Under the pieces are notes generated by a model. That model saw nothing but the letters and a program-made list of their open reading frames with translations, had not been told where the DNA came from and did not search any database. Below are positions 3,886 to 64,000 of a stretch of DNA of 64,000 nt, in pieces. How positions within the stretch are numbered: the first letter of the stretch is position 1; each line of letters starts with the position of its first letter. Source of the DNA: Alphaproteobacteria bacterium (GTDB lineage Bacteria; Pseudomonadota; Alphaproteobacteria; UBA828); contig CBDCQT010000012.1 of assembly GCA_965220745.1 (NCBI GenBank), forward strand, positions 832,001 through 896,000. The letters are read 5' to 3'. The position numbers and the translations under genes are program-made.

Positions 3886-3992
3886 GCGTCCTCTCCCTGC
3901 ATCATGCGATCGTGCCCAAGTGCCTGCTTGTTATCGCACGCCGGGCGCAGGCGTGACACCCTCGGCCTGACTGGGGGGCTCTCGCCGTTCCT

Positions 3993-6900
3993 TCAGGCCG
4001 GTGCCGGTTGGCGTGCCGCGCCGGAGCGTTCGGCCCGCAGCTTGCGGGTCGCCTCCTCGTCGAGCCGCATCGGCTCGGGCTCGATCACGACGCCGTAGTC
4101 GTCCCGCGCGCGCTCGATGGTGGTGAAGCCGTCGAACACGTCCGAGAGCACCAGCGCCGGATCGCGCTCCAGCGGATCGCCGTAGCCGCCCGAGTTCGGC
4201 ACCGTGATCTCGATGCTGTCGCCGGCGGCGAGCCGGAAGCCGGTGAACTTGGAGGGCCACGCCTCCTCGTCCGCGCCGCCCCGGTTGCGGACCACGGAGG
4301 CGTTCAGGCCCGCCATGCCGCCGAAGACGCCCCAGGGCTCGTCGGATTCGTGCCGCTCCCCCTCGCAGGTGACGATGGTGTCCACCAGCATCCTGTTGAC
4401 CCGCACCATGCCGATGCCGCCCCGCCACTTGCCGGCAGCACAGGCCTCGTTGCGCAGCTCGTAGCGCTCGGTGCGGATCGGGAAGCGCCACTCCAGCTCC
4501 TCGATCGGGTTGTTGCGGGTGTTGGCGATGAGGCAATCCACGGCGTCCATGCCGTCTCGGTCCGGACGGCCGCCGTAGGAGCCTTCGTCCACCTCCAGGT
4601 AGACCCAGTACTCGCCCTGATCGGCGTCGAAGCCGGAGTAGGAGATGAAGTGCAGGTGTGCCGAGTTGCCCGCGGTCACCCGCTCAGGCACCACCGGGGC
4701 GAGCGCGCGCAGCACCAGATCGACCGCGCGCTGCACCTGGCAGAAGCGGGCGAAGCAGGAGCGCGGGAAGTTGGGGTTGAAGATCGAGCCCTTGGGCGCG
4801 ATGACGTTGATCGGCCGGGTCATGCCCTCGTTCTGCGGCACGTAGACCGGGTGGGTCACGGTATCGAGGAAGATCATCCGCGTGATGAAGGACATGGCGG
4901 AGCAGGTCGTGCCCTCGAAGGGCACGTTGTAGCCGGTCGGCACCTCGTCGCTGGAGCCGGTGAGGTCGTAGGTGATCTCGTCGCCTTCGATGATCACCTT
5001 GACCTTGACCGGCAGCTTGCGGCCCCGGTTGACCCCGTCGTCGTCGAGATAACCCAATGCGGTCTCGTACTCGCCGTCGGGAATCTTGGCGATCTCGCGG
5101 CGCAGCATCTGCTCCGAATAGGTCATCCAGTGCTGGCCCGCCGCATCGACGGCGGCCCGTCCGTAACGCTCAATCAGGTCGAGGTAGCGCCGTTTGGCAA
5201 GCTCGCAGGCCGCGATCATTGCCTGGATATCGCCCTCGTTGGGCGTCGGCGTGCGCATGTTCTCCAGGATGTGCTTCCAGAGCCCGTCCTGCCGCACGCC
5301 TTTCACCGCCAGCTTCACGGCGCGGTAGATGTTGCCCTCGGCGTAGATGTCGACCGCGTTGATGTTGAGCCCCGGATAAGCGCCGCCGATGTCGAGCAGG
5401 TGGGCGGACGCGCCTGCGAATCCCACCAGCTCGCCCCGGTCGTAGATCGGCATCACGATGGCGCAGTCCGGCGAGTGCGTGGCCCCGTAGTAGGGGTCGT
5501 TGTGGAAGATGATGTCGCCTTCGTGGATGTCGCCATCGAGCAGCTCGATGACGTTCTGGACGATGCGCGGCATCGCGCCCATGAACATCGGCGTCGATTC
5601 CGATTCCGCCAGCATGAGGCCGTCGCGGTCGAAGATGCCCGCGCCGAGGTCTTCCGATTCGCGGATGATCGAGGAATAGGACATGCGGTAGAGCACGCCA
5701 GCCATCTCCTGAGCGATGGCGGTGAACGCGCCGCCGATGACGCGCTGCATGATCGGCGTCGCCAGGTCGTGCCCGTGCTGTGCCACCGCGCCAGCGCAAT
5801 CGATCACGATGTTGCCCCGCGCATCGATCGCCGCCTCGCAGCGGGGCGGGATTACCACGGTCGTATCGTACTGCTCGACGATGGCAGGGCCCGCGATGCG
5901 GTCGCCGGCGCGGAGCGCGGCGCGGTCGTAGAACGGCGTCTCGTGGGTCTCGCCCTTGCCCTCGACCTCGAACACAACGGGCTGGCGCAGCAGCGGCGTC
6001 GGCGCGCCATCGCCGCTCTCGATCTCCGGCCAGTCGAGGTCGGGGATGCGGCCGATGGCGACGGCCCGGATATTGATGATCTCGACGGGGGCATCGAAGC
6101 GATGGCCGTACTCGGCATCGTGTGCGCGATGGAAGCGCTCGGCCAGCTCCTCGACCCAGGCGTCGTCGATCTCGCCCGCCGGTGCGTCGAAGCGCACCTC
6201 GTAGCCCTGGCCGGCGTAGCGGCAATCGGCGAGGCGGCGGATCAGGCGGTCGCCCTCGGGCACGCCGTCGGCCTCCAGCCGCGCCAGCGCCAGGCTAGTC
6301 AGCGCTTCGAAGCGCGCGGCGAGATGGGCGCGGTCGAGCGTCGCCAGCGGCTGGCGCTCGGTGGTGACGAACTCGTGCTGCATGTCGGTGGCCAGCAGCC
6401 CGGTGGCCGAAAGGATGCCCGGATGCGGCGGCACCAGCACGCGCGGAATCTCAAGCTCCACCGCGATATCGCAGGCGAAGAGCGGGCCCGCGCCGCCGGC
6501 AGCAACGAGGGTGAAGTCACGGGGATCGTAGCCGCGCCGCACGCTGTTGAGCTCGATGGCCTGCACCATGCTGAACTTCTGGATCTGGAGCGCGCCGAGC
6601 GCGGTCTCCTCCAGCGACATGTCGAGCGTGCCGGCGAGCCCCTGCAGCGCGTTCTGGGCGAGGTCCGCGTGCAGGGTCATGCTGCCGCCGACGAGGCCGC
6701 GGTCGGTGCGGAGCCGGCCGAGCGCGACCTGCGCGTCGGTGGAGGTGGGCTCGGCTCCGCCGCGTCCGTAGCAGGCGGGGCCTGGGTCCGCGCCGGCGGA
6801 TTGCGGGCCGACCCGGTAGATGCCGCCCTCGTCGACATAGGCGATGGAGCCGCCGCCGGCGCCGATGGTGTCGATATCGACCATCGGGATCATGGCCTGG

Positions 6901-7856
6901 TAATCGCCGACCTTGGTGTCGAGCAGGTGGCGCATCCTGAGCGCGCCGCCGGCGGCCACGCCGATATCGGCGGACGTGCCGCCGATATCCAGCGTGAACA
7001 CGTTGTCGTAGCCGGCCATCTTGCCGGCCCAGATGCCGCCGATCAGCCCTGCCACCGGCCCCGACATCATCAGGTTGACCGGGCCGCCGGTCGCGCTGTC
7101 TGCGGTGGTCATGCCGCCGGAGGACTGCATGAGGCGGACGCCGCGCGCGAGCCCCGCGTCCTTCAGGCCGGACTCCAGCCGCCCGACGTAGCTCCCGACC
7201 CTGGGGCCCACGTAGGCGTTGAGGCAGGTGGTGGAGAAGCGCTCGAACTCGCGGTAGAGCGGCAGCACCTCGCTGGAGACCGAGAGGTAGGCGTCGGGAC
7301 ACTCCTCCTGAAGGATTTGCTTGATGCGCTGCTCGTGCGCGGGGTTGAGGTAGGCGTGCAGCAGGCAGACGGCGATGGCGTCCACGCCCGCCTCGCGCAG
7401 CGTGCTCGCTCGCTCGCGCACTTCCGCCTCGTCCAGCGGCACGATGATCTCGCCCTTGGGTGCGGTGACCCGCTCCTTGACCGTGAGCCGGTGGCGGCGC
7501 CTGACCAGCGGGCGCGACTGCCACGGCAGCTCCTGCTGGAGCGAGAAGTTGTGCGGCTTCTTGTGGCGCGCGATGTGGAGGATGTCGCGGAAGCCCTCGG
7601 TTGTGATCAGGCCGACTTCGGCGCCCTTGTGCTCGATGGCGATGTTGGTCGCCACGGTGGTGCCGTGCAGCAGCAGGTCCACCGCCTCCAGGCTGACCCC
7701 GGCCTTGCCGCAGAGCGCGTCCACGCCCGTCATCACCGCCCGCGCCGGATCGTCCGGCGTGGACGGCACCTTGTCGACCGTGATCGCCCCTGCCGCCTCG
7801 TCGACCAGAATCAGGTCCGTGAAGGTACCGCCGACATCCACTCCGATGCGCCGCAT
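3993..7856 (-). CDS. Fused hydantoinase A + hydantoinase B/oxoprolinase (ATP-dependent cyclic amide hydrolase)
   Basis: 1287 aa. A half: DVGGTFTD, HGTTVATN, SGPVAG, DIGGTSAD, GAGGGS. B half: SSIIRESED, NDPYYGATHSPD, AHLLDIGG, GGYGDP. Confidence 0.93.
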   Translation of the reverse strand: MRRIGVDVGGTFTDLILVDEAAGAITVDKVPSTPDDPARAVMTGVDALCGKAGVSLEAVDLLLHGTTVATNIAIEHKGAEVGLITTEGFRDILHIARHKKPHNFSLQQELPWQSRPLVRRRHRLTVKERVTAPKGEIIVPLDEAEVRERASTLREAGVDAIAVCLLHAYLNPAHEQRIKQILQEECPDAYLSVSSEVLPLYREFERFSTTCLNAYVGPRVGSYVGRLESGLKDAGLARGVRLMQSSGGMTTADSATGGPVNLMMSGPVAGLIGGIWAGKMAGYDNVFTLDIGGTSADIGVAAGGALRMRHLLDTKVGDYQAMIPMVDIDTIGAGGGSIAYVDEGGIYRVGPQSAGADPGPACYGRGGAEPTSTDAQVALGRLRTDRGLVGGSMTLHADLAQNALQGLAGTLDMSLEETALGALQIQKFSMVQAIELNSVRRGYDPRDFTLVAAGGAGPLFACDIAVELEIPRVLVPPHPGILSATGLLATDMQHEFVTTERQPLATLDRAHLAARFEALTSLALARLEADGVPEGDRLIRRLADCRYAGQGYEVRFDAPAGEIDDAWVEELAERFHRAHDAEYGHRFDAPVEIINIRAVAIGRIPDLDWPEIESGDGAPTPLLRQPVVFEVEGKGETHETPFYDRAALRAGDRIAGPAIVEQYDTTVVIPPRCEAAIDARGNIVIDCAGAVAQHGHDLATPIMQRVIGGAFTAIAQEMAGVLYRMSYSSIIRESEDLGAGIFDRDGLMLAESESTPMFMGAMPRIVQNVIELLDGDIHEGDIIFHNDPYYGATHSPDCAIVMPIYDRGELVGFAGASAHLLDIGGAYPGLNINAVDIYAEGNIYRAVKLAVKGVRQDGLWKHILENMRTPTPNEGDIQAMIAACELAKRRYLDLIERYGRAAVDAAGQHWMTYSEQMLRREIAKIPDGEYETALGYLDDDGVNRGRKLPVKVKVIIEGDEITYDLTGSSDEVPTGYNVPFEGTTCSAMSFITRMIFLDTVTHPVYVPQNEGMTRPINVIAPKGSIFNPNFPRSCFARFCQVQRAVDLVLRALAPVVPERVTAGNSAHLHFISYSGFDADQGEYWVYLEVDEGSYGGRPDRDGMDAVDCLIANTRNNPIEELEWRFPIRTERYELRNEACAAGKWRGGIGMVRVNRMLVDTIVTCEGERHESDEPWGVFGGMAGLNASVVRNRGGADEEAWPSKFTGFRLAAGDSIEITVPNSGGYGDPLERDPALVLSDVFDGFTTIERARDDYGVVIEPEPMRLDEEATRKLRAERSGAARQPAPA

Positions 7857-49329: not shown

Positions 49330-49414
49330 TGGTGCGGGCGAAGGGATTCGAACCCCCACGGCCTGAGCCACGTGGTCCTAAACCACGCGCGTCTACCAAT
49401 TCCGCCACGCCCGC
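49330..49414 (-). tRNA. tRNA-Leu(TAG)
   Basis: Reverse complement GCGGGCGTGGCGGAATTGGTAGACGCG-CGTGG TT TAG GA CCACG-...GGGGGTTCGAATCCCT-TCGCCCGC-ACCA; long variable arm; usual position upstream of tig. Confidence 0.96.
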
Positions 49415-49588
49415 GCGTCTCCGGTATGTCTCTGGTTCGTGAGTCCCTCCGGAAGCGGAGAAACTTCGCGCGCCCTATAGCACAGAAGGGCGCCAATGGG
49501 CCAAGACGCTATCGAGCAGCTTTTCCAGCTTGAACACAAGCTGGGATCGTGCTGAGAAATTCGGGTTAGTCTGACGATATCTTGCTGC

Positions 49589-49678
49589 GGATGGGTGGCC
49601 GAGCGGTCGAAGGCACCGGTCTTGAAAACCGGCAGGGGCGCGAGTCCCTCGTGGGTTCGAATCCCACCCCATCCGCCA
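49589..49678 (+). tRNA. tRNA-Ser(TGA)
   Basis: GGATGGGTGGCCGAGCGGTCGAAGGCA-CCGGT CT TGA AA ACCGG-long arm-GTGGGTTCGAATCCCAC-CCCATCC-GCCA. Confidence 0.96.
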
Positions 49679-55016: not shown

Positions 55017-55601
55017 GTGCCGGACATCGAAGCGTCGTTCAGCATCGACCAGCCTGCCAGTCGCGTCTGGGATTTCTTCCAGGACGTACCCGAGGTCGTG
55101 ACCTGCATGCCGGGCACGGAGCTTCAGGGCCAGACCGGCGAGGCGACCTATACGGGTAAGGTGACGGTCAAGCTCGGGCCCGTGACGGCCGCTTTCGAGG
55201 GCGACGCCACCATCGCCGAGACGGACCACGACGGCCGAAGCGCCAGGATCGAAGCCTCGGGCATCGACCGCCGGGGCGGCAATCGCGCGAAGGCGAGCGT
55301 CGCCTACGAAGTCCGGGAGCAAGACGGTGGAACCCAAGTCAGGCTCCACGGTTCCATCAAACTGTCCGGCGCGCTCGCCCAGATCGGCCGCAGCGGCATC
55401 GTTCAGGACGTTGCCAACCATCTCACCGCACAGTTCGCCGCGCGCCTTCACGAAAAGCTCGCGCGCGACGGCGACGAGGCGGATGCTAGTGCGGGCGCCC
55501 AAGACCCGCCCCAGGCCATCGCGGGCTCGCAGCTCACGCGTATCGTCGTGGTGGCGTGGTTCAGACGCCTGGTCGCAGCTCTGCTTGGACGCACCACCTA
55601 A
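55017..55601 (+). CDS. CoxG/SRPBCC-family protein
   Basis: VWDFFQD..V..CMPG, VKLGPV, LSGALAQIGR, amphipathic C-terminal tail; convergent with the Mo-enzyme operon. Confidence 0.85.
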   Translation: MPDIEASFSIDQPASRVWDFFQDVPEVVTCMPGTELQGQTGEATYTGKVTVKLGPVTAAFEGDATIAETDHDGRSARIEASGIDRRGGNRAKASVAYEVREQDGGTQVRLHGSIKLSGALAQIGRSGIVQDVANHLTAQFAARLHEKLARDGDEADASAGAQDPPQAIAGSQLTRIVVVAWFRRLVAALLGRTT

Positions 55602-57994
55602 GAAGTACGCGCCTGCTTGAGCATCCGATGGATCGCGTCGGGCGTGAGCGGCGCCTCGCGGATCGGTGCGATGCCGAAGGGTTGCAACGCATCTTCCACC
55701 GCTGACGCATACACCTGGGCCACCGGGATGGTGCCCGCTTCGCCGACACCCTTGACGCCGAGTGGGTTGAGCGGCGACGGCGTCTCCGAATGCATGATCT
55801 CCGCGTTGGGCACTTCGGTCGCGTAGGGCATCAGGAAATCCATGAAGTTGGCGTTGAGCGGGGTTCCCTCCTCGTCGAACTCGCATCGTTCGTAGAACGC
55901 GCCGCCCACGCCTTGGGCGATCCCGCCCATCACCTGGCCGTCCACGATCGTCGGGTTGATCATCCGCCCGCAGTCGTGACTGCAGATGTAGCGCTTGACC
56001 TCGATCGTGCACAGCTCGGGATCGACCTCGATCACGGCTGCGTGAGCGCCGAAGGCCCAGGTCGCATGGGGCGGGCTGTAGTAGTCGGTCGCCTCGATCC
56101 CCGGGGTCCTGCCTTCGGCAAGCGGCGGCCCGTCGTGACGGCTCGCCGGCGCGAACTGGGTCGCGCTCTTGGAGGGCTCGTTGAAGGCGTAGCGGAGCGG
56201 ATTGGTCGCGGTCGCGATCTCCGCCAGCGTCGCCCGGCGGTCGGTTCCCTTCACCCACGCCGCGCCGTCGTGGAGCTCGATGTCTTCTTGGCTGCACTCC
56301 ATCATGTTCGCCGCCGCCTCGACGATCTGCGCGCGCGCCTTCACCGCGGCCATGTGGATCGCGCTGCCGCTGCACACCGCGGCGCGGCTCGCGAAGGTCG
56401 CCACTCCCCATTCAAACGCTCCGGAGTCCCCCTCGACCACGATCACGTCCTCGACCCGTGCGCCGGTTTGTTCGGCGGCAATTTGGGCGAAGACCGTCTC
56501 GTGACCCTGGCCCTGATCGGTGAGGCCGGTGTTGACGTAGACCTTGCCGGTGATCGGGTGGATCTTGATGTGCCCGCCCTCGTAGGGGCCGAGCCCGGTA
56601 CCCTCGACGTAGAACCCGAGACCGAGACCGAGATAGCGCCCCTCGTCGCGGGCGGCCGCTTGCTCCGCACGGAAGCCCTCGACATCGATGGCCTCGCTTA
56701 GCTTGTCGAGCGACTCCTCGTAAGCGCCGCTGTCGTAAATGACCTGGAGACCGTCGGCGAAGATCAGGCCTTCGCGCGGATAGGGAAACTCGTCCTTTCC
56801 GATGAAGTTTCTCCGGCGGACCTCGAAGCGGTCGAGGCCGAGTTCGTCCGCGAGCTGATCCATGGCGCGTTCGATGGCGTAGCAGGCGTGCGGCCGTCCG
56901 CAGCCGCGGTAGGGAGTCACTTGCACCATCGGTAAATAAACCGGGCGGAACGTGACCCGGAAATTGGGGATGCGGTAAGGGCCCGCGATCGACGTCGAGC
57001 TCACGTGGGCGACGGCGATTCCGTAGGGGATAAACGCCCCCGTGTCGTGCAGGAACTCGTCCTTGAGGCCGATCACGCGGCCGTCCTTCATGGCCGCGAT
57101 TTCGAGGGTGTGAATCTGCGTGCGCTCCTGGGAGGCGCCGATGAAGTTTTCGACCCTGTCCTCGATGTACTTGACCGGGCGCCCGAGCTCCATCGAGGCC
57201 AGCGGCACCAGCACCTCGTCGGGGTGGAACATCATGATCTTCTGGCCGAAGCCGCCGCCCACGTTGGGCGCGATGACGCGTACCTTGTCCTCGTCGATTT
57301 GGAACAGGGAGGCCAAGCCGCCGCGCACCGAGAGCGTCGCCTGCGTGCCGTCCCACACCGTGAGCTCGCCGGTCACCGCTTCCCAGCGCGCCGCGATGGC
57401 GCGGCATTCCATCGGCGCCGCGGTGCTGCGCTCAAGCCGGATCTTGACCCGCGTGATGTGCTCGGCCTCTGCAAACGCCGCGTCGGTATCCCCGGTCTCG
57501 ACGCGGAACCTGCCGGCGGTGTTGTTGGGTACGTCCGGATGTATACGCGGCGCATCGTCCGCGACCGCCTTTTCGAGGTCCATCTCGACCGGCAGGGGGT
57601 CGTAGTCGATGTCGATCAGGCGGACAGCATCCTCGGCGACGTAGCGGTCGACCGCCACCACCATCGCGACGCACTGGCCAACATAGAACACGTCATCGCG
57701 GGCGAGCGGGCGCTGGGTCTTCGGATGGGTGAGGTCGGGAGCCGGTATCAGCAGTGGCAGTTCGGTATCGAGCGCGCCGATATTGTCGCAGGTGTAGACC
57801 TTGACCACACCGTCGAGCGCTTCCGCCGCGCTGATGTCGATTGCGCGGATCTTCGCTCTGGCGACCATGCTGCGGGCGAACGCCGCGTGGAGCGCGCCGG
57901 GAAGATCGATGTCGTCGATGAAGCTTCCCTCGCCACGCAGGAGGGCGGCATCGGCGTTGCGTGCGATTGGTTCGCCGAACTGGCGCGTCGACAC
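55598..57994 (-). CDS. Xanthine dehydrogenase-family molybdopterin-binding (CoxL-like) subunit
   Basis: GGGFGQK, PYRGCGRP, GQGHET, TFASR, GQVMGG, KGVGEAG (catalytic Glu). Confidence 0.93.
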   Translation of the reverse strand: MSTRQFGEPIARNADAALLRGEGSFIDDIDLPGALHAAFARSMVARAKIRAIDISAAEALDGVVKVYTCDNIGALDTELPLLIPAPDLTHPKTQRPLARDDVFYVGQCVAMVVAVDRYVAEDAVRLIDIDYDPLPVEMDLEKAVADDAPRIHPDVPNNTAGRFRVETGDTDAAFAEAEHITRVKIRLERSTAAPMECRAIAARWEAVTGELTVWDGTQATLSVRGGLASLFQIDEDKVRVIAPNVGGGFGQKIMMFHPDEVLVPLASMELGRPVKYIEDRVENFIGASQERTQIHTLEIAAMKDGRVIGLKDEFLHDTGAFIPYGIAVAHVSSTSIAGPYRIPNFRVTFRPVYLPMVQVTPYRGCGRPHACYAIERAMDQLADELGLDRFEVRRRNFIGKDEFPYPREGLIFADGLQVIYDSGAYEESLDKLSEAIDVEGFRAEQAAARDEGRYLGLGLGFYVEGTGLGPYEGGHIKIHPITGKVYVNTGLTDQGQGHETVFAQIAAEQTGARVEDVIVVEGDSGAFEWGVATFASRAAVCSGSAIHMAAVKARAQIVEAAANMMECSQEDIELHDGAAWVKGTDRRATLAEIATATNPLRYAFNEPSKSATQFAPASRHDGPPLAEGRTPGIEATDYYSPPHATWAFGAHAAVIEVDPELCTIEVKRYICSHDCGRMINPTIVDGQVMGGIAQGVGGAFYERCEFDEEGTPLNANFMDFLMPYATEVPNAEIMHSETPSPLNPLGVKGVGEAGTIPVAQVYASAVEDALQPFGIAPIREAPLTPDAIHRMLKQARTS

Positions 57995-58013
57995 GTCCGG
58001 GGTCTCCGTTTCT

Positions 58014-58550
58014 CTATCGCGAGCCGCGCATCAGTTCCGCGCTTCGGCGGAAGGCGGCCACGATGTTCTTGTAGCCGGTGCAGCGGCACAGGTTGCCCGA
58101 GAGAACCTCGCGAATGGCGTCCTCCGAAAGGTCCGGATCGGGATTGTTTTCGAGGTAGTCCACGATCGACATGACGAAGCCGGGGGTACAGTAGCCGCAC
58201 TGCAGCCCGTGGCATTCGCGAAAGGCTTGCTGGACGGGATGAAGCGAGCCGTCTGGCGCGGCAACGCTCTCGATCGTGCGAATGTCGGCGCCGTCGGCCT
58301 GGACGGCGAAGGCGAGGCAAGAGCGCCCGGCCTTTCCATCGATGATCACCGTGCAGCAGCCGCAGACTCCATGTTCGCAGCCGACGTGGGTTCCCGTCAG
58401 GCGCAGCTCATGGCGGATGAAGTCGCTCAGCAGCATGCGCGGGCTGACCTCGCGCTCGACCCGCTCGCCGTTGACGGTCATCGAGACGGCGACACGCGGA
58501 TCGGAGGACTGCCCGATCAGCTCCTTTCGCGCCGTCGGTCTCGCCATCAC
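58014..58550 (-). CDS. 2x[2Fe-2S] small subunit (CoxS-like)
   Basis: GCEHGVCGCCT, RSC, QCGYCTPG, NLCRCTGY. Confidence 0.95.
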   Translation of the reverse strand: MMARPTARKELIGQSSDPRVAVSMTVNGERVEREVSPRMLLSDFIRHELRLTGTHVGCEHGVCGCCTVIIDGKAGRSCLAFAVQADGADIRTIESVAAPDGSLHPVQQAFRECHGLQCGYCTPGFVMSIVDYLENNPDPDLSEDAIREVLSGNLCRCTGYKNIVAAFRRSAELMRGSR

Positions 58551-59416
58551 TCTCGCTCCCGCGCGCGTTCAGCAGCCTTCGCAACGGTGCGCCGGACCAA
58601 TGTCGAGGCGAGGTCCCTGCGGTAGTCCGCGCTGGCCTGGCGGTCGTCGGCCGCCGTCGCATAGTCGCGGGCCGCTTCGGCAGCGCGCGCGAGCGCGTCT
58701 CCCTCCAGCGGGGTGCCCAGCAGCGCGGCCTCGGCCTCGGCGAGTCGCGTGGGCTTCGAGGCGACGCCGCAGGCGGCGAGACGCACGGCGGTGCAGACAC
58801 CGTCCTTGAGGGTCACCAAAGCGCAGACCCCGGCCAACGCATAGTCGCCGTGGCGGCGTGCGACCTCCTGAAACGCGTATCCGGTATGCGGAGGCAGGGC
58901 CGGTATGCGCACCTCGGTCAGCAGCTCGCCCGCATTCAGCGCTGTCGTCATGTGAAACAGGAAGAAGTCATCGGCGGCGATGGTCCGTTCGCTCCCGACG
59001 CTGCGCGCCACCACCGAGCCGCCCGTCGCCACCAGCATGCAGGGTAGCTCCGCCGCCGCGTCGGCATGGGTGATGCTGCCGCCGACCGTGCCGCGATTGC
59101 GGATGACGATGTGCGCGACGTTGCCCAGGACTTCCGCAATGAGAGGGTTCGCCCGTTGAACCGCCGCATCGCGTTCGAGGTCCCGTTGACGAGTCATCGC
59201 GCCAACCCTGATGACGTCGCCCTCGACTGCGTGCCCCTTGAGCGCGCCGATCCTGCGGAGGTCCACCAGCGTCGACGGCGCGGCGATGCGAAAGTTCATC
59301 GTCGGGATCAGGCTTTGCCCGCCTGCCAGCGGCCTCGCCAAATCGTCGCTCGCCAGAACCTCCAGCGCCTCCTCGACGCTTTGCGGCGCCACGTACGCGA
59401 ACAGCGCAGGTTTCAC
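58547..59416 (-). CDS. FAD-binding medium subunit (CoxM-like)
   Basis: GTG start at 59416: KPALFAYVAP, LAGGQSL, RNRGTVGGS, RRHGDYA. Confidence 0.93.
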   Translation of the reverse strand: MKPALFAYVAPQSVEEALEVLASDDLARPLAGGQSLIPTMNFRIAAPSTLVDLRRIGALKGHAVEGDVIRVGAMTRQRDLERDAAVQRANPLIAEVLGNVAHIVIRNRGTVGGSITHADAAAELPCMLVATGGSVVARSVGSERTIAADDFFLFHMTTALNAGELLTEVRIPALPPHTGYAFQEVARRHGDYALAGVCALVTLKDGVCTAVRLAACGVASKPTRLAEAEAALLGTPLEGDALARAAEAARDYATAADDRQASADYRRDLASTLVRRTVAKAAERARERE

Positions 59417-61332
59417 TCCGCGGCCTCCTGGACCGCCTCGGCGGCGAACCAACCGTCGTCCGGGTCGTCGTGACCCGCCGGGCGCGCGATTCCCTTGCTG
59501 CGCTTCATCTGCTCGAAATAAGGCCCGCGACTGAACATGGGGAGCGGTCCACGTTCGGCCCGTATGCGCGCCCGCAAGCGATCGGTCTCCGCCTGGTCCA
59601 CCGTGTAGCGCCGGCTCCGGCGTGCGAGCACGACCCCGTAGTCGTCGCGCGCCGCCTGCTCCGAAACCAGGCCGCACAGCACGTCGTAGCACACCATCTC
59701 GGGCTCGCGCGCCAGCGGGTCGCCCCAGCCGCCGCCGCCCGTCGTGCGGATCCTGATGGTCGAGCCGCCGGCGACGGGGACGCGGTCCTCCATGCCGGCG
59801 AGCTCGCGCTGTGTGCCGTCCGGCTTGTCGATCTCCAGACTGTAAGTGCCGCCGTACTTGCCGCCGTTGACACCGTAGGTGTTGATCATCGCGCGATCGG
59901 CGTTGGAAAGCGCCTCGCAATCTTCGAGCGCGCGCACGCGCTTGTCGTAGCCGAATCCGCCGCGCCGGCAGCCGGCACCGCCCGAATCCGTGGCGAGGCC
60001 CAGGCGTTCGACGATGACAGGGTAGCGGGTCTCAGAGAACTCCGCGGGCAGGTTGCGCGAGTTCGGCACCACGTGAACCACGTCGCTGCCGTCGGCCCAG
60101 GGGCGCCCCGGTCCACCGCCGCCGAGCACTTCGCGGAACAAAAAGAAATCGTGGCCGATGCGTCCGCCGTGCAGGCCCCAGATTCGGATCGTCTCGTGGT
60201 CGGCCGGCATGCGCCCGCTGGTCGCCTTGGCCAGCAGCGCCGCAAAGATTCCGAGCGAGCGCAGCAGCGGGAAGAAGCGCAGGCCCGTGGCCTTGCCGAA
60301 GCTCGGCGTCACCAATGTCCCCTTGGGCGGGAACTTCAGCTCGATGACATCCAGCACACCCTCGTTCATGTCGATCTCGGCCGCCCGCTCGGGCGTCGCC
60401 GCGAGCGAGCGGAGCACGGGCCCCATCCACTTGCGGGCGAACTTTCCGTCCGCGTAGTCGATGGGCCAGTTGATCGGCCCCTTCGCCTCCTTCGAGGTGC
60501 CGGTGAAGTCGAGGACGATCCTGTCGGCGGTCTTGGTCATCGTCAGGCGCAGCGTGTGCATCTGCGGCCCCTCGACGCCGTCGTCTTCGATGTAGTCCTC
60601 CCAGGAATAGACGCCGTCCCGAATCATGGGCAGCAGCTCGCGGCGTATGGTCTCCGCGCAGTTCTCGATGATGGCGTCGTAGGCGGCCTCCAGCGCCTCC
60701 ACGCCGTAGCGTTCCGCTAGCGCCACGATGCGCTGGCCACCAAGCCGGGCGGCGCCGATCTCGGCATCGAGATCGCCGCGCAGATGCTCCGAGAGGCGCG
60801 AGTTGCGCGAGATGATCTTGAAGACCGCCTCGTTGATGTTCCCGCGCTCGTAAATCTTGATGGGCGGCACCACCAACCCTTCCGTCCACATGTCGGTCGC
60901 ATCGGCCGGCAGGCTGCCGGGGACCGAGCCGCCTACGTCGTCGTGGTGCCCAAAAACCTGGCTGAACCCGATCAGCCGGTCGCCGTAGAAGATGGGGATG
61001 GTCGTGCAGAGATCGGGAATGTGGCCGATCCCGCCCGCGCTGTTGTAGGGATCGTTCCAGAAGAAGATGTCTCCCGGGTGGACATCGCCTTCGTCGAAGT
61101 ACTCGAAGACCGGCTCCACCAGGGCGGCATAGGAGCGCCCGGTCAGCTTGCGCCCTTTCGCATCGAAGAGCGCGACGCGGTAGTCGTGCTGGTCCCGGAT
61201 CATCGGCGAGCGCGCCGTTCGCTCGACCGCCGCCTCGATCTCGAGCTCGGCAGTGCGGATCGTACCGGTAATGACCTCGAGCTCGATCGGGCCGAGCGGC
61301 GGTCTTGCGTCCTTGGCCGTGACTGCGCTCAT
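59413..61332 (-). CDS. Hydantoinase B/oxoprolinase subunit
   Basis: RSPMIRDQHD, NDPYNSAGGIGHIPD, GHHDDVGG, GGGGWGDP. ATG at 61332 overlaps the A-gene stop. Confidence 0.92.
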   Translation of the reverse strand: MSAVTAKDARPPLGPIELEVITGTIRTAELEIEAAVERTARSPMIRDQHDYRVALFDAKGRKLTGRSYAALVEPVFEYFDEGDVHPGDIFFWNDPYNSAGGIGHIPDLCTTIPIFYGDRLIGFSQVFGHHDDVGGSVPGSLPADATDMWTEGLVVPPIKIYERGNINEAVFKIISRNSRLSEHLRGDLDAEIGAARLGGQRIVALAERYGVEALEAAYDAIIENCAETIRRELLPMIRDGVYSWEDYIEDDGVEGPQMHTLRLTMTKTADRIVLDFTGTSKEAKGPINWPIDYADGKFARKWMGPVLRSLAATPERAAEIDMNEGVLDVIELKFPPKGTLVTPSFGKATGLRFFPLLRSLGIFAALLAKATSGRMPADHETIRIWGLHGGRIGHDFFLFREVLGGGGPGRPWADGSDVVHVVPNSRNLPAEFSETRYPVIVERLGLATDSGGAGCRRGGFGYDKRVRALEDCEALSNADRAMINTYGVNGGKYGGTYSLEIDKPDGTQRELAGMEDRVPVAGGSTIRIRTTGGGGWGDPLAREPEMVCYDVLCGLVSEQAARDDYGVVLARRSRRYTVDQAETDRLRARIRAERGPLPMFSRGPYFEQMKRSKGIARPAGHDDPDDGWFAAEAVQEAAE

Positions 61333-63371
61333 GCCTCTTTCTCCAGAATGAGGTTGCCGTAATCGTCGTTCCTGACGGCCCAGCCCTCGGGCACCACGAG
61401 GGTCGAGCCGTACTCCTCGACGATACCCGGCCCTCGCGTGGTGAAGCCGCGGGACAAGCTCTCCCGGCGCCAGATGGGGCAGGATACCCAGCCCCGGCCG
61501 CGCCAATAGACATCGCGCACACCGGCCGGGCTTGCGTCGTCCGATCCCAGCTCGATCGCGCGCACGGAGGGGCGGTGCATGCGCCCGATCGCCTGCACGC
61601 GCAGGCTTACGACCTCGACGTCCTGGCTGCCCTCGTAGTGGAAGCCGAAGGTGTCGTCATGGACCCGGTGAAAGTGCGACCACATGTGATCGACGGCTGC
61701 GGCACCGGCAAGGCCGGACGGGATCGCGACCAGCACCTCGTGGCCTTCGCCGACGTAGCGGACGTCGGCGCTCCGTTCGAGCACGATTGCCTCGCGCGCC
61801 ACGCCCTCGGCCGCGATCTCGTCGCAACCCAGCTCTTCGAGATCGGCCCACAGTCCTTCAAGCTCATCGACGGTGGCGGTCGATTGCTGGCGCACCAGCG
61901 TGCGCACGTAGTCGCGCTTGATGTCGCAGACGTGCAGGCCGAAGGCGGAGAGGTTGCCCGGATTGGGCGGCGAGACCGCGACCTTGATCCCCAGAAAGTC
62001 GGCCACATCGGCGGCGAACAGACCGCCGGCGCCGCCGAAGGCGATCATGGCGTAGTCGCCGGGGTCGAGACCGCGCGTCGTCGTCACCTTGCGAATGCCC
62101 TGGACCTGGTTGGAGGCCGCGATTTCCAGCACGCCGGCGGCTGCTTCCTCTGCCGAGAGGCGGAGATTATCGCCGAGCGCCTCGAACGCCTCGCGCGCGG
62201 CATCGACATCCAGCTTGAGCCCGCCGCCAATGAGTGCGCCAGGCAAGCGCCCCAGCACCACGCCTGCGTCAGTCACCGTGGGTCCGGTTCCGCCGCGCCG
62301 ATAGCAGATCGGGCCAGGATCGGCGCCCGCGCTCTGCGGCCCGACCTTGAGCGCACCGTAGGGGTCGATCCAGGCGAGCGATCCTCCGCCGGCGCCGACG
62401 GCCACGACATCGAGCATCGGAGTCTTGACCGGATAGTGCTCGATGGTGGTGTGCGTGGAGAGTTGCGGCGTGAGCCCGCGCACCAACGAGACATCGGTGG
62501 ACGTGCCACCGACATCGAGCGTCAAGATATCGTTGTATCCGGCGAGGCTCGCCATGTGGGTGGCCCCGAGGACGCCGCCCGCAGGTCCCGAGAGCAGCAT
62601 CGTCACCGGCTTCTCGCCGGCAGCCTCGCTGGAGACGATCCCGCCGTTGGACTGCATGATCAGGAAGGGCTTGTCACCGGACTCTTCGGCGATCTTGTCG
62701 CGGGCACGTCCCAGATAGGTCTGGCAGTAGGGCTTCACCATCACGTCGATCAGCGTGGTCATCGCACGTTCGTACTCGCGGTATTCCGGTAGGACGACCG
62801 ACGACAGCGACACGAACGTGTCGGGAAAGTTCTCCGCGATGATCGCGCCGACGCGCTGTTCATGCGCCGGGTTTGCATAGGAGTGGAGCAGACAGACGGC
62901 GATGCGCGTGACACCGAAATCGACGAGATGGTCCACCGCCTCGATCACGCTTTTTTCGTCGAGAGGCGTCATGACGGAGCCGTCGTGGCTCATGCGCTCC
63001 GTCACCTCCTGGACCAGATGGAGCGGCACGAGGCGGGGCGGCTTCACCCAGAAGAAGGAGTTGCCGTAGCCGTCGGGCACGGACTGGCGCGCGATCTCGA
63101 TGATGTGGCGAAACCCGGCGGTAACGAGCAGGCCGAGGCCTTCGAAACGGTGCTCCAGCACGGCGTTGGTTGCCGTCGTGGTGCCGTGCAGGATTTGACT
63201 CAGTTGCGCATCGTTCCTGCCGACGACTTCCTGAATCCCGTTGATGAGGCCGCGGCTAGGGTCGTCAGGCGTGCTCGGCGTCTTGATGGCAAGCTGCTCG
63301 CCCGTGCTCTCATCGATCGCGATGACGTCCGTGAACGTTCCCCCGGTATCGATGGCGATTCGCAAGCTCAT
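61329..63371 (-). CDS. Hydantoinase A/oxoprolinase subunit
   Basis: IDTGGTFTD, HGTTTATN, SGPAGG, DVGGTSTD, GAGGGS; GGAG SD before the ATG at 63371. Confidence 0.93.
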   Translation of the reverse strand: MSLRIAIDTGGTFTDVIAIDESTGEQLAIKTPSTPDDPSRGLINGIQEVVGRNDAQLSQILHGTTTATNAVLEHRFEGLGLLVTAGFRHIIEIARQSVPDGYGNSFFWVKPPRLVPLHLVQEVTERMSHDGSVMTPLDEKSVIEAVDHLVDFGVTRIAVCLLHSYANPAHEQRVGAIIAENFPDTFVSLSSVVLPEYREYERAMTTLIDVMVKPYCQTYLGRARDKIAEESGDKPFLIMQSNGGIVSSEAAGEKPVTMLLSGPAGGVLGATHMASLAGYNDILTLDVGGTSTDVSLVRGLTPQLSTHTTIEHYPVKTPMLDVVAVGAGGGSLAWIDPYGALKVGPQSAGADPGPICYRRGGTGPTVTDAGVVLGRLPGALIGGGLKLDVDAAREAFEALGDNLRLSAEEAAAGVLEIAASNQVQGIRKVTTTRGLDPGDYAMIAFGGAGGLFAADVADFLGIKVAVSPPNPGNLSAFGLHVCDIKRDYVRTLVRQQSTATVDELEGLWADLEELGCDEIAAEGVAREAIVLERSADVRYVGEGHEVLVAIPSGLAGAAAVDHMWSHFHRVHDDTFGFHYEGSQDVEVVSLRVQAIGRMHRPSVRAIELGSDDASPAGVRDVYWRGRGWVSCPIWRRESLSRGFTTRGPGIVEEYGSTLVVPEGWAVRNDDYGNLILEKEA

Positions 63372-63411
63372 GAACTCTCCCGACGCCGGCTGCCCCCGGT
63401 TGCCGGCGCAG

Positions 63412-64000
63412 CTATCCACCGTTACCGGCGCGGCCAGCCTCGATCAAGGCGAGAATCATCTCCGGCTTGAGCGGCAGCGTCGTGATCTCGACGCCGAAGG
63501 GCGCGAGAGCGTCGCAGATGGCGTTGGCGAGCGCGGCAGGCACGGGCCCCGGCCGGCCTTCGCCCACGGCGCGCACGCCCAGAGGATGGTCCGGGCAAGG
63601 CGTCGGCGAGTGGCCCACGGTCACGTTCGGGACATCCGCCGCAGACGCGAGCCGGTAGTTCTCAAAGTCCGCCGTCAACTGCTGACCGTTCTCGTCGTAG
63701 AGGAACTCCTCGAACATGGCGTTGGACATGCCCTGCACCACGCCGCCCTGCACCTGGCCTTCGACGACGATGGGGTTGATCACCGTGCCCACATCCTCGC
63801 AGGTGGCGTAGTCGAAGATGGTGAACTGCCCGGTCTCGATATCGACCTCGACCTTGGCGGCCTGCGCGGTGAAGCAGATCATGGGCTTGGGCGCCTCGAA
63901 GTAGGCCGTGTGCTCGAGCCCCGGGTCCTCGCCGGGCGGCAGGTTGATCGAGCCCATGACGATGCGATCCGCCAACGCGGCGAATTCGCGGCGAATGTTG
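63412..64000 (-). CDS. C-terminal part of a second xanthine dehydrogenase-family Mo subunit (extends beyond the window)
   Basis: VEVDIETG, DVGTVINP, GQVQGG, GVRAVGE, ANAICDAL. Confidence 0.9.
   Translation of the reverse strand, partial: NIRREFAALADRIVMGSINLPPGEDPGLEHTAYFEAPKPMICFTAQAAKVEVDIETGQFTIFDYATCEDVGTVINPIVVEGQVQGGVVQGMSNAMFEEFLYDENGQQLTADFENYRLASAADVPNVTVGHSPTPCPDHPLGVRAVGEGRPGPVPAALANAICDALAPFGVEITTLPLKPEMILALIEAGRAGNGG

Follow-up and report, generated by a model that had tools for sequence, protein, structure and literature searches.

Organisation of the locus

The window, a stretch of 64,000 nucleotides (G000:C12:832001-896000; numbers above 64000 extend the same count further along the contig), holds at its far end a minus-strand gene cluster in which an ATP-dependent hydantoinase/oxoprolinase pair, encoded by hyuA and hyuB (products A and B), lies between the genes of two molybdenum (Mo) hydroxylases, M1S1L1 and M2S2L2 (Table 1). 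The source genome G000 measures 4.8 Mb, has a guanine-plus-cytosine (GC) content of about 67% and is 99.96% complete, and its closest homologues are alphaproteobacterial. A sequence-only reading of the window had described the order L1, hyuA, hyuB, coxM, coxS and L2 on the minus strand, overlaps of 4 bp at the A/B, B/M2 and M2/S2 junctions, and a coxG gene converging on the end of the operon. Gene calls and translations agree with this account in each respect, the coxG gene overlapping the L2 stop by 4 bp, and all family calls made there are backed by Pfam and NCBIfam profiles. The remaining junctions are gaps of 19 bp between S2 and L2 and of 40 bp between L1 and hyuA. That reading had also supposed that the two large subunits share one M/S pair, and had advised that the sequence upstream of 64 kb be read for transporters and a second pair. 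This was done, and M1, S1 and an ATP-binding cassette (ABC) importer of the BMP family were found there. Since M1 and S1 sit directly upstream of L1, just beyond the window, the shared pair was rejected.

Table 1. Features of the gene cluster and of the adjoining contig sequence
Feature	Position	Strand	Basis or remarks
coxG-like accessory gene (194 aa), belonging to the conserved core	55017..55601	+	PF06240; 3' end shares 4 bp with the L2 gene
L2, Mo-hydroxylase large subunit (798 aa), candidate for the large subunit of uracil/thymine dehydrogenase	55598..57994	-	NF040766; loop PYRGCGRP; catalytic Glu
S2, 2x[2Fe-2S] subunit (178 aa)	58014..58550	-	PF00111 + PF01799
M2, FAD (flavin adenine dinucleotide) subunit (289 aa)	58547..59416	-	PF00941 + PF03450
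hyuB, hydantoinase/oxoprolinase B, metal-binding hydrolytic subunit (639 aa)	59413..61332	-	PF02538
hyuA, hydantoinase/oxoprolinase A, ATP-binding subunit (680 aa)	61329..63371	-	PF01968/PF05378/PF19278
L1, large subunit of the other Mo hydroxylase (complete length 802 aa)	63412-65820 (3' end in window, 63412..64000)	-	loop SPSRSFGALP; Glu in AVGEGR
S1 of the L1 set	65817-66332	-	beyond the window; overlaps L1 by 4 bp
M1 of the L1 set, first gene of the operon	66337-67218	-	beyond the window
BMP/PnrA-family ABC importer, divergent from M1S1L1	67337-72021	+	PF02608, PF00005, PF02653
8.7-kb cassette of M1S1L1 and importer, flanked by a solute-binding gene upstream and by hyuA	~63384-72095 (in-window part 63384..64000)	.	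alignments to relatives

A conserved core of hydantoinase pair and Mo hydroxylase

A scan of genome contigs with B found 143 relatives, and the best 80 of these loci were used for counting. A was present in 79 of them, the M2/S2/L2 clade in 61 and an XdhB-type enzyme in its place in seven, whereas 12 loci, four of them on short contigs, showed no Mo enzyme. A Mo hydroxylase thus accompanies the pair in 68 of the 80 loci. Among the 38 hydantoinase-B paralogues of G000 itself, the studied one included, only three have a Mo large-subunit gene within 10 kb, so the linkage is not due to chance and is a property of this subfamily. The conserved unit is A-B-M2-S2-L2, joined by coxG in 26 of the 80 loci. 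Other frequent neighbours encode creatininase-family proteins (40), BMP importers (32), IclR regulators (27) and isochorismatase-family proteins (15), and a malonyl-coenzyme A (CoA) synthase, a decarboxylase or a carboxyltransferase occurs in 13. L1 was found in three. Such linkage, which the sequence-only reading had proposed to test across phyla, fits its suggestion that a ring is first oxidised and then opened.

At the seven exceptional loci (L028, L037, L041, L059, L060, L063 and L085) an XdhAB paralogue stands beside A/B where M2S2L2 would be expected, likely a non-orthologous displacement. A further arrangement was seen on plasmid pRZP2 of Rhodococcus sp. ZPP (L003), which bears a unit of NCS2 permease, M, S, L, G, A and B with no barbiturase in the 32 kb shown; its L and its A both align as two separate segments, which suggests frameshifts.

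The hydantoinase pair and its origin

Subunit A carries the ATP motifs DTGGTFTD, DVGGTSTD and GADPGP of the family with an actin-like ATP site and a GxxPGP element, and the Asp-His-Asp-His metal tetrad of B (D50/H104/D107/H129) aligns with D41/H99/D102/H124 of caprolactamase CapB. In domains, ATP motifs and metal site, the pair resembles the ATP-dependent lactamases CapAB (6YRA), N-methylhydantoinase (7HK5) and 5-oxoprolinase. It nevertheless fails both caprolactamase profiles by a wide margin (NF050156 and NF050157, 517 and 227 bits against a cutoff of 1000) and forms a separate subfamily with motifs of its own. Three motifs quoted in the sequence-only reading are found at residues 41-50 and 65-72 of B and 95-111 of A. 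The likeness that it had suggested to an actinobacterial subfamily linked to cox genes proved correct, the motifs being common to the proteobacterial and actinobacterial clades.

The recent actinobacterial transfer that had been drawn from this likeness was rejected on tree, identity and GC. In a quick maximum-likelihood search over 106 distinct B proteins (from 111 matches with a coverage of B of at least 88%) and three paralogues, the protein studied here lies deep within a clade of 73 Pseudomonadota rows. The main actinobacterial clade, with 26 rows, is separate and only 50-56% identical, and the GC content fits the genome. A few rows from Actinomycetota and Chloroflexota branch outside the proteobacterial clade, and an ancient origin in Actinomycetota may therefore be considered, with a root that rests on long outgroup branches.

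The molybdenum hydroxylases

Both M2S2L2 and M1S1L1 are complete, each having FAD, 2x[2Fe-2S] and molybdenum-cofactor subunits, and the equivalent of Glu730 is kept in both large subunits, that of L2 lying within GVGEAG. Enzymes of this kind place water-derived oxygen beside a ring nitrogen. L2 and L1 are only 34% identical and belong to different families.

L2 scores 989 bits against the cutoff of 950 for NF040766, named CODH_aero_grp5, and the L genes of the barbiturase islands described below also pass this profile, with 1412 and 1482 bits. The form I Mo-Cu carbon monoxide (CO) dehydrogenase profile TIGR02416 is, by contrast, failed by both large subunits (512 bits for L2 and 465 for L1 against 991), and the AYxCSFR loop of form I is absent, its position being occupied by PYRGCGRP in L2 and SPSRSFGA in L1. 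For this barbiturase-linked clade, the NCBIfam name "aerobic CO dehydrogenase" appears to be an error of annotation. Members that fall under the name were seen in the window (55598-57994) and at L156, L164, L110, L051 and L070. Apart from these, an M-S-L set with 54% identity to L2 was noticed on a plasmid of Serratia entomophila (L087), with no A/B nearby and among fimbrial and biosynthetic genes.

Association with the barbiturase pathway

The oxidative route of pyrimidine breakdown has been known since the 1950s and was described from Rhodococcus erythropolis. It proceeds through uracil/thymine dehydrogenase (presumably EC (Enzyme Commission) 1.17.99.4), barbiturase (EC 3.5.2.1) and then ureidomalonase, and the dehydrogenase genes of R. 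erythropolis are said to have been cloned. Pyrimidines are converted through barbiturate to malonate and urea (PMC3758960), with malonate arising from uracil and methylmalonate from thymine (PMC7662398), and the pathway has been termed rare, with barbiturase homologues in about 3% of genomes (PMC3758960).

The tie between this route and the core was seen most directly in genome G491. Its barbiturase matches that of PDB 5HWE, which we take to be from R. erythropolis, at 363 of 369 residues (98%). In the same island, 5.4 kb away, is the L gene of a block with the order NCS2-M-S-L-coxG-A-B. The best matches of the G491 L, S, A and B proteins in G000 are L2, S2, A and B (46%, 45% and 50% identity for L, A and B), with 671 bits for L to L2 against 437 for the next best; the G491 M protein matches a paralogue rather than M2. 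From its position beside barbiturase, the G491 L gene would encode the uracil/thymine dehydrogenase. Barbiturase islands also hold an NCS2 permease, upp (over its cutoff), PucR, XdhC, amidases, a CoA transferase and a fused carboxyltransferase, and other islands add FdrA, AllG and carbamate kinase. The island permease is closest to pyrimidine transporters (344 bits to RutG and 239 to uracil permease, against 140 to xanthine permease).

Distribution across genomes points the same way. Among 251 Actinomycetota, a tally that includes G176, G233 and G023 (flagged unpublished; each with L2 and B and without the barbiturase family PF09663), an L2 orthologue occurs in 24. B occurs in 20, all inside those 24, so that every B carrier has L2, and in two more B is cut at a contig end. 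PF09663 is present in 16 of the 251 genomes, namely in 13 of the 24 L2 carriers and in only three of the 227 others. The three genes outside the L2 carriers bear the signature of cyanuric acid hydrolase, as that signature is given in PMC3758960. Nine of the 13 inside were compared, eight having the barbiturase residues and one being divergent.

A second sample (hereafter Mycobacteriaceae-type) took in 301 genomes from the family to which G088 belongs; G088 has Mycobacteriales-type arabinosyltransferases. Barbiturase-type PF09663 (E<=1.7e-144) was found in 16, and all 16 carry orthologues both of B and of L2, the latter within the island in 11 and by genome search in five. A further 18 genomes, out of 34 B carriers, have B without PF09663. 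Eleven genomes with weaker PF09663 matches lack B, and the five of these genes read fully have the cyanuric-acid-hydrolase signature. Barbiturase is thus nested within the genomes that carry the hydantoinase pair.

In the 80 loci themselves, barbiturase appears in none. PF09663 was likewise absent from the nine genomes searched out of ten whose loci include malonyl-CoA synthase, which leaves A/B as the only candidate ring-opener in those nine. Cultured A/B carriers free of barbiturase include Microbaculum marinum (L070) and Taklimakanibacter albus (L072). Barbiturase-family genes do coexist with A/B in 30 of the 55 genomes searched from the 80 loci, and the idea that A/B simply replaces barbiturase was rejected on this ground.

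G000 itself shows no dihydropyrimidine dehydrogenase or RutA over cutoff. On another contig (C11:402767-405046; L152:8692-11061) a cytosine-deaminase-like gene directly precedes a barbiturase-like gene, which keeps Asn194, His324, Lys328 and Val348 and has Asp in place of Ser349. The same gene passes the NCBIfam cutoff for cyanuric acid amidohydrolase despite its barbiturase-type residues.

Proposed pathway

These associations favour, with a probability of roughly 0.6, a reading in which the A-B-M2-S2-L2 core forms the upper part of oxidative pyrimidine catabolism, with A/B opening the ring at the expense of ATP and barbiturase being optional. The substrates are those that we infer from family chemistry and gene context. 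M2S2L2 would hydroxylate uracil and thymine at C6 with oxygen from water, giving barbiturate and 5-methylbarbiturate, and A/B would then phosphorylate and hydrolyse the ring to ureidomalonate or its methyl form. Nitrogen would be freed by amidohydrolases that vary with lineage (amidase, creatininase-, isochorismatase- or nitrilase-family enzymes, or AllFGH-like proteins with carbamate kinase), after which malonate or methylmalonate would be converted to its CoA ester and decarboxylated. A/B would be the constant ring-opener, and classical barbiturase an addition to it.

Action of A/B on barbiturate itself is favoured by the malonyl-CoA-synthase genomes that lack PF09663, and by the frequency of B in the Mycobacteriaceae-type sample, which is about double that of barbiturase. 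Barbiturase has narrow specificity. As A/B and barbiturase are kept together in many genomes, A/B may also do what barbiturase cannot, most simply act on the methylated substrate. The accessible portions of PMC3758960 and PMC7662398 name no enzyme that opens 5-methylbarbiturate. On balance, we lean slightly towards A/B being an ATP-dependent barbiturate/5-methylbarbiturate amidohydrolase and the true core ring-opener, in which case a pathway called rare would be far more widespread than barbiturase counts indicate.

Several observations weigh against this pathway. The open-licence literature searched yielded no assayed enzyme of the clade. In the seven loci where an XdhB paralogue is the partner, its purine-binding residues are intact in all four that were aligned, and the seven genomes carry no L2 orthologue, five of them having another XdhB. 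Of the genomes behind the 12 loci without a Mo enzyme, five were tested, and four have no L2 orthologue anywhere. The coexistence of A/B with barbiturase-family genes, already mentioned, means that A/B is no simple replacement, and the co-occurrence counts and their Fisher values overstate the case because the genomes are related. Finally, a lower pathway is not identifiable in G000: malonyl-CoA decarboxylase (PF05292) gave no match, in a search that was equally blank in control genomes; malonate decarboxylase (PF16957) gave none; malonyl-CoA synthase (NF005702) was not found over cutoff; and the creatininase family is represented only by a 29% match. The genome has many unassigned amidases and CoA transferases besides.

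Alternative explanations and the M1S1L1 cassette

The most credible of the alternatives, though still an unlikely one, keeps the same architecture and assigns it to a purine or another nucleobase-like heterocycle, for instance in an oxygen-independent opening of a urate-type ring, with the pyrimidine genes merely co-clustered. The XdhB-type partners suit it, and their presence in genomes without L2 shows that A/B needs some Mo hydroxylase while keeping a purine in play. PucR, AllG/FdrA and carbamate kinase are, moreover, known from purine and allantoin clusters, and BMP importers often carry purines. L2, however, lacks the purine residues of xanthine dehydrogenase: at the positions that we take to be Glu232, Arg310, Phe344, Phe459 and Gln197, mapped through an alignment to 1JRO, it has I/V/C/P/S and L1 has A/L/F/S/C. 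The XdhB profile TIGR02965 is failed too (207 and 199 bits against 849.5), and a separate XdhB-type gene with purine residues is present on contig C5 of G000. The pyrimidine-like island permease and the strict nesting of barbiturase in B-carrying genomes also argue against a purine, and two of the XdhB-type loci themselves hold malonyl-CoA synthase.

A different departure from the proposed pathway concerns the upstream genes. The sequence-only reading had envisaged two successive hydroxylations by the two large subunits, and an integrated route of this sort would start with the import of a less oxidised or modified pyrimidine, on which M1S1L1 would carry out the first hydroxylation before the product passed to M2S2L2 and A/B, the eight-gene operon being one pathway. 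Such a route has little chance of being right. It would account for the short distance, 40 bp, between the end of L1 and the equally oriented hyuA, an arrangement kept in G000 and in the loci of five relatives. In addition, a tree of binding proteins sampled from these same loci places that of the cassette as sister (Shimodaira-Hasegawa-like approximate likelihood ratio test, SH-aLRT, 99) to 19 that accompany the core elsewhere, which gives a hint of a functional link between cassette and core.

The behaviour of the upstream genes across relatives speaks for separateness. DNA alignments of L010-L012 skip from 72095-72096 to 63374-63383, so that 8.7 kb of importer and M1S1L1 is cleanly missing, and the same block stands free, without A/B, at L177, L180 and L188. 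Among 60 relatives, 17 close-orthologue loci of L1 were examined: L1 adjoins hyuA in five (three being the genomes of L007, L009 and L017) and lies away from it in 12. The orthologous A/B is absent from all 79 L1-family loci in metagenomes, one having an unrelated pair and many of the contigs being short; the frequent neighbours there are short-chain dehydrogenases/reductases, SMP-30 lactonases and zinc dehydrogenases. Together with its own M and S and its presence in only three of the 80 core loci, this tells against two hydroxylations as a designed pathway. M1S1L1 with its importer is a separate, lineage-specific cassette.

As the outgroup loci L013, L015, L016 and L056 lack L1, we infer insertion of the cassette upstream of hyuA in one sub-lineage as likelier than loss, with branch support that is low near the tips. 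The best PDB match of L1 is quinoline 2-oxidoreductase, its plasmid matches reach at most 37%, and the best structure for the binding protein is named atrazine periplasmic binding protein; neither this structure nor the L1 neighbours are diagnostic of substrate. Were the proposed pathway extended upstream by this captured cassette, two complete Mo enzymes would, without oxygen, hydroxylate a less oxidised or modified pyrimidine twice before its ATP-driven opening; that extension has a slimmer chance still. Two near-identical copies of importer and M1S1L1 were also observed about 420 kb apart on one contig (G560:C6; L180 and L181), one of them beside insertion-sequence-like genes.

It is very unlikely that A/B instead serves creatinine degradation as its N-methylhydantoinase, with an incidental Mo hydroxylase. 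Among solved structures, N-methylhydantoinase 7HK5 is indeed the best match of each of the two subunits, and creatininase-family, isochorismatase-family and cytosine/creatinine-deaminase-like genes are among the neighbours. B, however, scores 216 bits against 7HK5 (phmmer) and about 615 against the B of the barbiturase island (BLAST), the creatininase-family gene reaches 110 bits against a cutoff of 235, and the Mo enzyme, barbiturase and malonate genes would be left unexplained. That M2S2L2 is an aerobic CO dehydrogenase, as the name of NF040766, the best PDB match (CoxL 8UEM) and the adjacent coxG would have it, is barely credible in view of the failed form I profile, the replacement of the Cu-binding loop of 8UEM (PYRGAGRP in actinobacterial members), the nearly equal scores of nicotine and quinoline hydroxylases and the neighbouring catabolic amidohydrolases.

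Relation to known systems and significance

With the alternatives so placed, the core is probably an undescribed, conserved variant of oxidative pyrimidine catabolism. It shares with the known route the L2, A and B orthologues that stand in an island with a near-identical 5HWE barbiturase, a uracil-type permease, upp and malonate-CoA genes. It departs from that route, as described, in having an ATP-dependent ring-opener, in dispensing with barbiturase at the 80 loci and in 18 of the 34 B-carrying Mycobacteriaceae-type genomes, and, in G000, in the M1S1L1 cassette, which has no counterpart there.

A precedent for the chemistry is found in the anaerobic indoleacetate (iaa) pathway of Aromatoleum aromaticum and Azoarcus evansii, in which an enzyme of the xanthine-oxidase family makes the lactam 2-oxoindoleacetate and which has linked CoA ligase and B12 mutase genes. 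No mutase was found among the 50 recurrent neighbours scanned around the core. The hydantoinase-like, ATP-dependent pair IaaCE has been proposed to open the 2-oxoindoleacetate ring (PMC8453981), so the logic of oxidation followed by ATP-driven opening is not new. Substrate and neighbours differ, and the B-type subunit of IaaCE has 564 aa against 639 aa here. The designation "uncharacterised pathway" in the sequence-only reading holds in part: context places the core in a known pathway and IaaCE anticipates its chemistry, whereas an ATP-dependent ring-opener has no described role in that pathway. The open-licence literature searched gave no description of this gene cluster; new in this analysis are the nested distribution of barbiturase among genomes with A/B and the recognition that L1 belongs to a cassette.

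If the proposed pathway is right, the dehydrogenase and an ATP-driven ring-opening enzyme both have candidate genes. The count of the pathway in the Mycobacteriaceae-type sample would be about doubled (34 against 16 of 301), and the pathway would extend to many Proteobacteria. The NCBI label "CO dehydrogenase", which can inflate estimates of CO oxidisers, would be corrected. The two-large-subunit feature, being a lineage-specific cassette, is of modest importance.

Further features of the locus and genome

The genes of the cluster have 65-70% GC, the same as the genome, and are presumably co-transcribed. A promoter scan gave 0 sites against 2.3 expected, and terminator-like sites numbered 9 against 8.9 expected. 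In two RNA runs, 0.06-0.08 of words matched, the contig pieces being at most 552 bases long and from relatives, so that they cannot show a transcript.

Elsewhere in the window, a second, unrelated hydantoinase A/B pair occupies about 3909-7850 on the minus strand (A 40% and B 30% identical to the pair studied), and divergent genes for tRNA-Leu(TAG) and tRNA-Ser(TGA) lie at 49330-49678, between tig and pfkB-zwf-pgl-edd and away from the cluster edge. Further along the contig, G000:C12:923573-931513 holds an integrase followed by terminase-like, capsid-like and protease-like open reading frames, a prophage-like region as judged by eye from the translations. A third hydantoinase B/A pair (L002:2782-8257) converges with a strongly divergent GroEL/cpn60 paralogue (only 162 bits to PF00118), in a catabolic region that also encodes a racemase, an M20 hydrolase and a pair of related solute-binding proteins. 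Expansion of both families is general in G000, which carries 18 Mo-hydroxylase large-subunit genes and about 38-43 genes of the hydantoinase-B type in its 4.8 Mb.

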